Source: Eledone cirrhosa (Eukaryota). Taken from it: DNA of 64,000 nt. A program made the position numbers and the translations under genes. The notes below the pieces were generated by a model. It saw only the letters and a list, made by a program, of their open reading frames with translations, was not told the origin of the DNA and did not search any database. This document shows, piece after piece, positions 30,646-33,364 of this stretch. The stretch lies in contig OZ024741.1 in NCBI GenBank assembly GCA_964016885.1, forward strand, positions 341,682,001 to 341,746,000, read 5' to 3'. Positions within the stretch are counted from its first letter, which is position 1. Every line of letters starts with the position of its first letter.

Positions 30646-31057
30646 AATATGGTTTTATAAATATAGTTTCCATTTGTTAATATCATATATATATATATAT
30701 ATATAATATATATATATATATAATATATATATATATATAATATATATATATATATAATATATATATATATATAATATATATATATATATAATATATATAT
30801 ATATATAATATAATATATATATAATATATATATAATAATTAAGTTAAAAATGTACATCCACATATGTATACTGAAATACTAGTATGCATATGAATACACA
30901 CACGTGTACATATGTAGATGTACCGAGTTTTTCACTGGACACTTTACTGTGAGTGTCCAGCTATTCTGTATGTAAACACACAGACAAACCGGTTTTTAGA
31001 GTCATACTGGTTTTCCAGGAAACACCTTTCCTCTATTCTCCAGAAAGCCAGACAAGG

Positions 31058-31102
31058 AATATTGGACTAGTTTCGATGTTGTTACATCTCATTAGCAATA
31101 TT
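31058..31102 (-). ncRNA. Type I HHR (family 1), G5A mutant
   Basis: Core reads CTAATGA instead of CTGATGA (position 31093). Confidence 0.8.
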
Positions 31103-31523
31103 TACCTATCTTCCGGCCTTTCTAGAGAATCGTAAAAGCACATATCGTTATATGCTTTTTCTATGAAAATTAGTAGTGGGCAGACTAATTTGCATAGAGC
31201 GTGAGTACGTACCTGTTCAGCGGAGACGACAAAAACAAATAACGAAACAAAATTAAATTTCGTTTCGTTTGTAACTCACTTTTGTATGACTGACGCTTAA
31301 ACAATTAAGTTAAAAATGTACATCCACATATGTATACTGAAATACTAGTATGCATATGAATACACACACGTGTACATATGTAGATGTACCGAGTTTTTCA
31401 CTGGACACTTTACTGTGAGTGTCCAGCTATTCTGTATGTAAACACACAGACAAACCGGTTTTTAGAGTCATACTGGTTTTCGAGGAAACACCTTTCCTCT
31501 ATTCTCCAGAAAGCCAGACAAGG

Positions 31524-31568
31524 AATATTGGACTAGTTTCGATGTTGTTACATCTCATCAGCAATATT
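31524..31568 (-). ncRNA. Type I hammerhead ribozyme (family 1)
   Basis: Reverse complement of 31923-31967. Confidence 0.9.
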
Positions 31569-31922
31569 TACCTATCTTCCGGCCTTTCTAGAGAATCGTA
31601 AAAGCACATATCGTTATATGCTTTTTCTATGAAAATTAGTAGTGGGCAGACTAATTTGCATAGAGCGTGAGTACGTACCGGTTCAGCGGAGACGATAAAA
31701 ACAAATAACGAAACGAAATTAAATTTCGTTTCGTTTGTAACTCACTTTTGTATGACTGACGCTTAAACAATTAAGTTAAAAATGTACATCCACATATGTA
31801 TACTGAAATACTAGTATGCATATGAATACACACACGTGTACATATGTAGATGTACCGAGTTTTTCACTGGACACTTTACTGTGAGTGTCCAGCTATTCTC
31901 TAGAAAGGCCGGAAGATAGGTA

Positions 31923-31967
31923 AATATTGCTGATGAGATGTAACAACATCGAAACTAGTCCAATATT
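31923..31967 (+). ncRNA. Type I hammerhead ribozyme (family 1)
   Basis: AATATTG CTGATGA GATGT AACA ACATC GAAA CTAG TC CAATATT: 7-bp stem I, 5-bp stem II, palindromic ACTAGT stem III, GUC cleavage after 31960. Confidence 0.92.
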
Positions 31968-32388
31968 CCTTGTCTGGCTTTCTGGAGAATAGAGGAAAGG
32001 TGTTTCCTCGAAAACCAGTATGACTCTAAAAACCGGTTTGTCTGTGTGTTTACATACAGAATAGCTGGACACTCACAGTAAAGTGTCCAGTGAAAAACTC
32101 GGTACATCTACATATGTACACGTGTGTGTATTTATATGCATACTAGTATTTCAGTATACATATGTGGATGTACATTTTTAACTTAATTGTTTAAGCGTCA
32201 GTCATACAAAAGTGAGTTACAAACGAAACGAAATTTAATTTCGTTTCGTTATTTGTTTTTATCGTCTCCGCTGAACCGGTACGTACTCACGCTCTATGCA
32301 AATTAGTCTGCCCACTACTAATTTTCATAGAAAAAGCATATAACGATATGTGCTTTTACGATTCTCTAGAAAGGCCGGAAGATAGGTA

Positions 32389-32433
32389 AATATTGCTGAT
32401 GAGATGTAACAACATCGAAACTAGTCCAATATT
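32389..32433 (+). ncRNA. Type I hammerhead ribozyme (family 1)
   Basis: Identical to 31923-31967, offset +466. Confidence 0.9.
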
Positions 32434-32854
32434 CCTTGTCTGGCTTTCTGGAGAATAGAGGAAAGGTGATTCCTCGAAAACCAGTATGACTCTAAAAACC
32501 GGTTTGTCTGTGTGTTTACATACAGAATAGCTGGACACTCACAGTAAAGTGTCCAGTGAAAAACTCGGTACATCTACATATGTACACGTGTGTGTATTCA
32601 TATGCATACTAGTATTTCAGTATACATATGTGGATGTACATTTTTAACTTAATTGTTTAAGCGTCAGTCATACAAAAGTGAGTTACAAACGAAACGAAAT
32701 TTAATTTTGTTTCGTTATTTGTTTTTGTCGTCTCCGCTGAACAGGTACGTACTCACGCTCTATGCAAATTAGTCTGCCCACTACTAATTTTCATAGAAAA
32801 AGCATATAACGATATGTGCTTTTACGATTCTCTAGAAAGGCCGGAAGATAGGTA

Positions 32855-32899
32855 AATATTGCTGATGAGATGTAACAACATCGAAACTAGTCCAATATT
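32855..32899 (+). ncRNA. Type I hammerhead ribozyme (family 1)
   Basis: Identical to 31923-31967, offset +932. Confidence 0.9.
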
Positions 32900-33364
32900 C
32901 CTTGTCTGGCTTTCTGGAGAATAGAGGAAAGGTGTTTCCTCGAAAACCAGTATGACTCTAAAAACCGGTTTGTCTGTGTGTTTACATACAGAATAGCTGG
33001 ACACTCACAGTAAAGTGTCCAGTGAAAAACTCGGTACATCTACATATGTACACGTGTGTGTATTCATATGCATACTAGTATTTCAGTATACATATGTGGA
33101 TGTACATTTTTAACTTAATTGTTTAAGCGTCAGTCATACAAAAGTGAGTTACAAACGAAACGAAATTTAATTTCGTTTCGTTATTTGTTTTTATATATAT
33201 AATATATATATATATATCGGTTTCAACACACGTTTTCAGATAAAGAATCTTGCTAAACAAATTCAGAAACGAAATATATATATTTATATATGTATATATA
33301 TATTTACATATATATATATATATTGTTATACTTGGGGAGGGTTATATTTGTGTAATATTGACAG

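Follow-up and report, generated by a model that had tools for sequence, protein, structure and literature searches.

Two opposed arms of a 466-bp hammerhead-bearing unit

The stretch analyzed here, hereafter the window, comprises 64,000 nucleotides of microsatellite-rich sequence from the 3.0-Gb genome of Eledone cirrhosa (assembly GCA_964016885.1, contig OZ024741.1, positions 341,682,001–341,746,000 of the forward strand). Positions 30837–33194 hold a retrozyme repeat with a 466-bp period at 99% identity, which an earlier note, made from the sequence alone, had described as a single tandem array. The period stood, but the units run in both orientations and form two opposed arms, the left (30837–31899, minus strand) with 2.28 head-to-tail units in the RNA sense and the right (31895–33194, plus strand) with 2.79 units. 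When the monomer is numbered from the base after the predicted ribozyme cut (position 1 = window 31961; cut-to-cut monomer 31961–32426, plus strand, 466 nt), the arms meet head to head at positions 98 and 401, with a 5-nt overlap common to both (31895–31899). The outer (3′) end of the left arm falls at monomer position 228 (site A) and that of the right arm at position 302 (site B); the tail between the two sites (33121–33194, plus strand; monomer 229–302) contains a 13-bp hairpin. The arms are flanked on either side by (TA)n tracts, the left target at 30680–30836 and the right at 33195–33217, between which the target duplication cannot be delimited at this locus. The note had overlooked the inverted two-arm layout with its fixed outer ends and therefore drew no tie to Penelope-like enzymes.

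The unit is 36% GC, and its longest stop-free frame spans 57–60 codons. A long reading frame with reverse transcriptase (RT) and GIY-YIG domains was sought in the 466-bp unit and not found, so the element is non-autonomous. Neither a tRNA nor a Pol III box was found in the unit, and its four T-runs argue against Pol III multimers. The sequence does support the label 'retrozyme', given a non-coding unit with one type I hammerhead and dispersed young arrays. The remark that 466 nt is large for such a monomer holds against the 170–400 nt of metazoan non-LTR retrozymes (PMC7229834), but the unit lies within the 51–972 bp of vertebrate ones (Li, Clavereau, Pollet 2026, bioRxiv 10.64898/2026.07.22.740005).

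A dispersed family with two fixed outer ends

A 26-nt tail pattern (≤2 mismatches) matched the genome 10,678 times and a 38-nt ribozyme pattern matched it exactly 1,582 times, with no control match in either case; the family is dispersed, with 251 matches in 40 of the 313 candidates scored. We mapped 66 loci, 38 taken from the best matches (the window included) and 28 in chromosome order. Two arms were present at 45 of the 66, all head-to-head by the definition used, and some one-armed loci bear a second arm too short for alignment. In 40 of the 45 two-armed loci, one outer end fell at positions 226–233 (A) and the other at 296–303 (B); one or both ends lay elsewhere in the remaining five, and no locus paired A with A or B with B. 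A replicate set of 19 further loci gave the same picture: 13 had two aligned arms, of which 11 were AB, 2 were other, and none was AA or BB.

The inner ends behaved differently from the outer ones. All 90 were uniform over the monomer (Kolmogorov–Smirnov p = 0.985), without clustering at the ribozyme cut (1 of 90 within 3 nt), and no junction recurred among the 45 two-armed loci. Microhomology of ≥2 nt was present at 17 of 33 insertion-free junctions, compared with 17% by chance, and 12 junctions carried small insertions or gaps. Both flanks were TA in 39 of the 45 two-armed loci, and where the flanks were not pure TA we found duplications of 12–13 bp (L033, L047, L053, L063, L065, L086 and L095). 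Arms had a median length of 1.7 units, the longest reaching 15.8. Once the columns of the search patterns were excluded, conservation along the unit was highest at monomer positions 220–305 (6 of 60 columns variable, compared with 102 of 336 elsewhere; p = 0.0008), and to judge from this pattern the tail region 229–302 is likely to be recognized by an enzyme. The best explanation of the window locus is that it is one young copy of this dispersed family, produced by a single recent insertion.

A different origin would be as ordinary satellite DNA that arose out of a Penelope terminal repeat, with unequal crossing-over to amplify it in place and DNA rearrangement to invert it; local amplification of this type is the route favored for vertebrate retrozymes (bioRxiv 10.64898/2026.07.22.740005). 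Some local duplication does occur in the family, as period-3 and period-4 variant repeats inside long arms show, and one array of at least 64 units exists (L135, L084 and L136; G000:C1:95641100-95670800), which belongs to a 469–470-bp subfamily and has ends beyond the sampled stretch. Against a satellite origin stand hundreds of dispersed loci at ≥99% identity, with ends fixed in RNA phase, strict AB pairing, duplications and TA targeting, which cannot arise by local recombination, and no parent terminal repeat was found among the three Penelope-like families considered below. As an account of the origin of the loci, a satellite is thus extremely improbable and already largely refuted.

Hammerhead ribozymes and the fold of the monomer

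Three hammerheads lie on the plus strand of the right arm, at 31895–31989 (core at 31930, with an extended helix I), 32361–32455 (core at 32396) and 32827–32921 (core at 32862), and two on the minus strand of the left arm, at 31502–31596 (intact core from 31561, cut predicted between 31531 and 31530) and 31036–31130. The type I motif is as the earlier note had given it, with a 7-bp stem I (31923–31929 with 31961–31967), CUGAUGA at 31930, a 5-bp stem II, GAAA, CUAG and UC; the extended helix I and all four hairpins that it named are present, and the predicted cuts fall, as it expected, after 31960, 32426 and 32892. Its count of one ribozyme per unit also held, except that one of the five has a mutated core: at 31095 the core of the hammerhead at 31036–31130 reads CUAAUGA, through a change at 31093. 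We take this core to be inactivating under the usual hammerhead rules, so that this copy is likely inactive. All five matched the Rfam model HH9 at 36–38.9 bits (E 4e-7 to 4e-6), below its gathering score of 52, the mutated copy scoring 36 compared with 38.9. At the gathering threshold Rfam returned nothing across the 64-kb window, and the microRNA-family matches in the below-threshold scan were rejected as AT-repeat noise. Genome-wide, 406 of 421 sampled copies retain an intact core, in a sample partly selected on the core.

The note had also proposed that cleavage is dimeric. In stem III a palindromic tetraloop sits on a single base pair; the energy model puts the cost of this 1-bp stem at ~6 kcal/mol in the monomer and the self-pairing of the 6-nt palindrome at -4.8, and in the predicted minimum-energy fold the first three core bases would pair with the stem III loop, an inactive form. 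The same design in the axolotl HHR_Amex1 is reported to be dimer-dependent (PMC7229834). Because of this likeness, the cost of the stem and the self-pairing of the palindrome, cleavage as dimers is plausible, as a fair prediction and not a result.

The monomer is predicted to adopt a branched multi-hairpin fold in which the hammerhead closes the circle. Folded as a linear molecule it reached -160.8 kcal/mol (z -10.1; none of 100 shuffles was as good), and in circular mode -156.5 kcal/mol (z -12.0 against 40 shuffles), so the high structure claimed for it was borne out; the antisense strand also folded well (z -8.7), because hairpins fold on either strand. Across 20 units from subfamilies of 90–99% identity, 8 of 154 pairs showed a compensatory change, a number that none of 500 shuffles equaled and compared with 1–2 pairs in slid controls, albeit one inflated by the kinship of the sequences. 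One of the covarying pairs lies in hammerhead stem II (changed in 6 of the 20 units, and as the same double change in contigs from public runs of two other organisms) and three lie in the extended helix I. Subject to that inflation, we count the covariation in favor of RNA-level selection on the fold.

An end rule shared with Penelope-like elements

Adjoining the array is a 5′-truncated Penelope-like element (family 1; 33320–35646) with RT, a CX4CX2C motif and GIY-YIG. Its 45-bp inverted arm ends at its own site A and its main arm at its own site B. Copies of family 1 end 224 or 282 nt past their own hammerhead, close to the 228–233 and 296–302 nt from cut to end in the retrozyme. This young family numbers 32,472 candidates, and among its copies are intact frames of 1,217 codons that carry an asparagine-rich insert; in Pfam the 1,217-residue frame had no match, and other Penelope-like frames had sub-threshold RVT_1 and GIY-YIG matches. 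A tail piece of a second Penelope-like family also adjoins the array, isolated between TA tracts (33219–33272).

The pairing of one A end with one B end recurs in these elements, in all 15 rows of Penelope-like family 2 and in the one case offered by family 1, the neighbor in the window. Rows of family 3 that appeared to be 'AA' proved to be an artefact of the end pattern and were left out of the count. The rule extends to a second hammerhead array in the window (39911–41521, ribozyme on the minus strand), whose 310-bp unit is unrelated to the 466-bp one and has a palindromic stem III loop, and which bears a short inverted arm at 41443–41521. This 310-bp family is likewise dispersed and has two fixed end sites ~26–33 nt apart; it obeyed the AB rule in 11 of 13 stretches, the other two being one single-armed case and one with no match.

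Penelope insertions have been reported to carry an inverted copy, a tail and an 8–10-bp duplication (PMC3846280; PMC8557442). In vitro, the Penelope-like protein of an anole nicks both strands of AT-rich DNA and initiates on the RNA at two internal sites, one at either edge of the tail; the protein is predicted to form a dimer (PMC11167929). We therefore consider Penelope-type two-site priming of the retrozyme insertions very likely, and we are fairly confident of the fuller reading in which the window locus is a retrozyme insertion whose two multi-unit arms were made by a borrowed Penelope-like RT/GIY-YIG protein from an RNA that was probably circular.

As to which Penelope-like family may have lent the protein, the length of the target duplication was tried as a guide and abandoned, the flanks being too TA-rich to tell. 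Two loci join the retrozyme to such an element. At L036 (~3500–5627), a young family 2 arm with a site A end (98–99% identical to its closest copies) stands head-to-head with a retrozyme arm with a site B end, across a blunt junction, an arrangement that would fit an insertion event with mixed RNAs. At L040 (~2660–6313), a retrozyme arm continues in the same orientation into the 3′ region of an older family 3 copy (88–93% identical to others), for which insertion with target deletion is the more likely explanation. Since L040 points to target deletion as a possible source of such fusions, L036 counts as no more than a lead. A Penelope fusion was also sought at L034, L049, L189 and L191, and none was found there.

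A probable single template for both arms

If both arms of a locus were primed on one RNA, they should carry the same variants. The common family variant was concordant between arms in all 21 young two-armed loci, and locus-private variants (those present in 1 of 36 scored loci) were fixed in both arms at L053 (8/8 copies) and L082 (8/8 and 7/7 copies). In 7 of the 14 testable loci no other sampled locus was as near as the opposite arm, and in 12 the opposite arm was nearer than the median.

Arms that share haplotypes, at times in register, would also result if reverse transcription made only one arm and fold-back (self-priming) produced the second from it, and self-priming has been proposed for palindromic Penelope junctions (PMC3846280). 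Fold-back, though, does not explain why copying should end at the other fixed site, and the A arm was the longer in 20 of 40 AB loci and the B arm in the other 20. Moreover, at nearly every locus the junction phases bear no relation to each other, and variants that recur in one arm were missing from overlapping units of the other (L041, L042m). We regard fold-back as very unlikely.

A closer competitor keeps the same two-site priming but places it on a long linear multimer, transcribed from a large source array and left uncleaved, with the hammerhead a passenger or rarely active. Long arrays do exist; unit differences common to both arms occur in register in the window, L056 and L068; and for the anole element in vitro, ribozyme cleavage was dispensable and unprocessed RNA was the main substrate (PMC11167929). 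However, linear copying can only shorten arrays, the inner ends never pile up at one phase, and none of the 45 two-armed loci has copied a parent junction (though the median arm spans just those 1.7 units). Recurrent unit differences were absent in 22 of the 36 loci, stem II covaries, and the core is intact in nearly all sampled copies, with the reservation about selection made above. On balance a linear multimer is unlikely. The uniform inner ends, the missing parent junctions and arms of up to 16 units favor a circle instead and, granted Penelope-type two-site priming, we hold with moderate confidence that the template was circular.

Several observations weigh against this reading as a whole or against its circular template. 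A clonal RNA pool at insertion would give an identical picture of sharing between arms, and a uniform linear parent array would likewise yield uniform daughters. A pure monomer circle fits poorly with the window itself, where a unit in the same register in each arm carries the same three private changes, and with the four of 36 loci that have in-register unit differences, three that have out-of-register ones and 11 variants that recur in one arm only. An excess of A>G over T>C in the RNA sense was not found in 85 stretches (29:36 for single, 7:7 for recurrent and 21:19 for fixed changes, with polarity taken relative to the window unit and not to an ancestor). The duplications, lying in TA-rich flanks, may be chance matches; the array of at least 64 units (≥30 kb, 90% identity) behaves as a satellite that expanded in place would; and comparison of the monomer with the terminal repeats of the three Penelope-like families returned only short AT-rich words, none of them significant. 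Finally, eight of nine predicted Xenopus dimers remained uncleaved in vitro (bioRxiv 10.64898/2026.07.22.740005). The unit differences within arms, which include a period-2 alternation at L056 and in one arm of L059 and mosaics at L033, L041 and L050, call for templates of two or more units, circular or linear, for switches between templates or for conversion after insertion.

Public sequencing runs extend the family beyond this genome. Among 24 runs, no carrier of the unit was recorded as RNA, which gives no evidence either way on expression; 20 runs from 16 studies and many organisms carried 21–86% of its words. Two of four runs examined (other organisms, kind unrecorded) yielded one contig each of the monomer plus 30 nt at ~97% identity, for which a circle and a tandem account equally well. 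Such full units indicate that the family is common to several species or samples. In one other organism the unit in a contig stops at position 302 and (AT)n follows, so site B is in use there as well.

Other features of the window

Just to the left of the array, at 28172 and 30370–30680, is a third type of repeat with a hammerhead; it is older, lies in an inverted arrangement and has related copies in many of the fetched loci. About 5 kb from the array is an intronless frame of 341 codons for a rhodopsin-family G protein-coupled receptor (38024–39049, minus strand; Pfam 7tm_1, E 3e-27). Long frames at 19887–24940 and 44245–51748 (minus strand), with an upstream zinc-knuckle frame, resemble what we take to be the endonuclease and RT of non-LTR retrotransposons, and a 29-bp minisatellite with 125 copies at 93% identity occupies 55457–59073.

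Discussion

Retrozymes are an established class, and much of what we describe is familiar from the metazoan non-LTR retrozymes of coral, mussel and axolotl, which are likewise non-coding tandem units of <45% GC with one type I hammerhead per unit and a stable branched fold (PMC7229834; PMC7761336), and which in the axolotl HHR_Amex1 include the same 1-bp stem III with a palindromic tetraloop (PMC7229834). Those retrozymes have been shown to cleave and to form circles, whereas for the 466-bp family both steps are predictions; they are also described, in the text available, as simple tandems with no conserved partner motif (PMC7229834), whereas the family studied here is laid out in two opposed arms that end at two fixed sites, and it has a conserved tail and duplications of 12–13 bp. 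Reverse transcription of retrozyme circles by Penelope-like enzymes was proposed in the same work (PMC7229834; PMC7761336). The two-arm, two-site footprint on a retrozyme was not found in the literature searched, a search that left supplements and subscription journals outside its scope.

Vertebrate non-LTR retrozymes resemble the present family in co-occurring with Penelope-like elements, whose enzymes they have been proposed to use non-autonomously (bioRxiv 10.64898/2026.07.22.740005). They differ in that 24 of 57 Xenopus families share homology with Penelope terminal repeats in that report, compared with none here for the three families. The plant LTR retrozyme, with a type III hammerhead in its LTRs (long terminal repeats), a primer-binding site and a 4-bp duplication (bioRxiv 10.64898/2026.07.22.740005), does not match: the motif here is type I, the layout is not that of an LTR element and the duplication is 12–13 bp.

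The closest likeness is to Penelope-like elements themselves, which share the head-to-head layout, the one-ended tail, two internal start sites, AT-rich or (TA)n targets, a short target duplication and a hammerhead upstream of the start sites (PMC3846280; PMC8557442; PMC11167929). Unlike those that bear an endonuclease, the retrozyme has no reading frame and each of its arms is a multimer of a small unit. Its duplication of 12–13 bp exceeds the 8–10 bp of rotifer Penelope-like elements, and its tail of ~63–74 nt exceeds the 30–40 nt usually cited for Penelope-like elements and the 58 nt in two families of the present genome. The Penelope link rests here on the anatomy of the insertion, which points to each array having been made in one event.

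In L1 twin priming, both target nicks prime cDNA and the resulting inversion is joined by microhomology. There the position of the second site varies and the sense arm comes to a halt close by, whereas here both sites are fixed and the two arms run on independently of each other for several units.

The sequence of events that we propose would begin with read-through transcription of an array, followed by hammerhead cleavage of the array RNA, likely as dimers, and ligation to monomer or sometimes dimer circles. A Penelope-like protein would then nick both strands of a (TA)n target with a stagger of ~12 bp. One RT would start near position 230 and another near 302, flanking the conserved tail hairpin, so that both primed strands would copy one RNA variant, each enzyme copying 0.1–16 units by strand displacement. 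At 0–5 nt of microhomology the 3′ ends of the two cDNAs might anneal, and host repair would complete the insertion. More tentatively, and with the odds in our view somewhat against it, a dimeric Penelope-like RT/endonuclease could prime on the two strands of a single staggered cut and run two simultaneous rolling-circle reverse transcriptions on an RNA circle produced by the ribozyme, each subunit on its own start site.

The 466-bp element belongs to a known class of genomic parasites, and no host function is suggested for it. Its interest lies in two questions, the life cycle of retrozymes and the mechanism of Penelope insertion. In the available parts of the literature consulted, Penelope-like reverse transcription of retrozyme circles has so far been proposed and not demonstrated, and the origin of the inverted-plus-tail structure of Penelope elements has been called unresolved (PMC8557442). 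In this family one small template has left thousands of products in the genome, with mapped start sites at ~230 and 302 and a conserved 74-nt region between them; with intact candidate enzymes (the 1,217-codon frames) in the same genome and a published in vitro assay (PMC11167929), both questions are directly testable. If L036 is a true mixed-RNA event, it would name the partner enzyme, and the dimeric rolling-circle model, if true, would explain both the origin of retrozyme arrays in animals and the inverted copy plus tail of Penelope elements.

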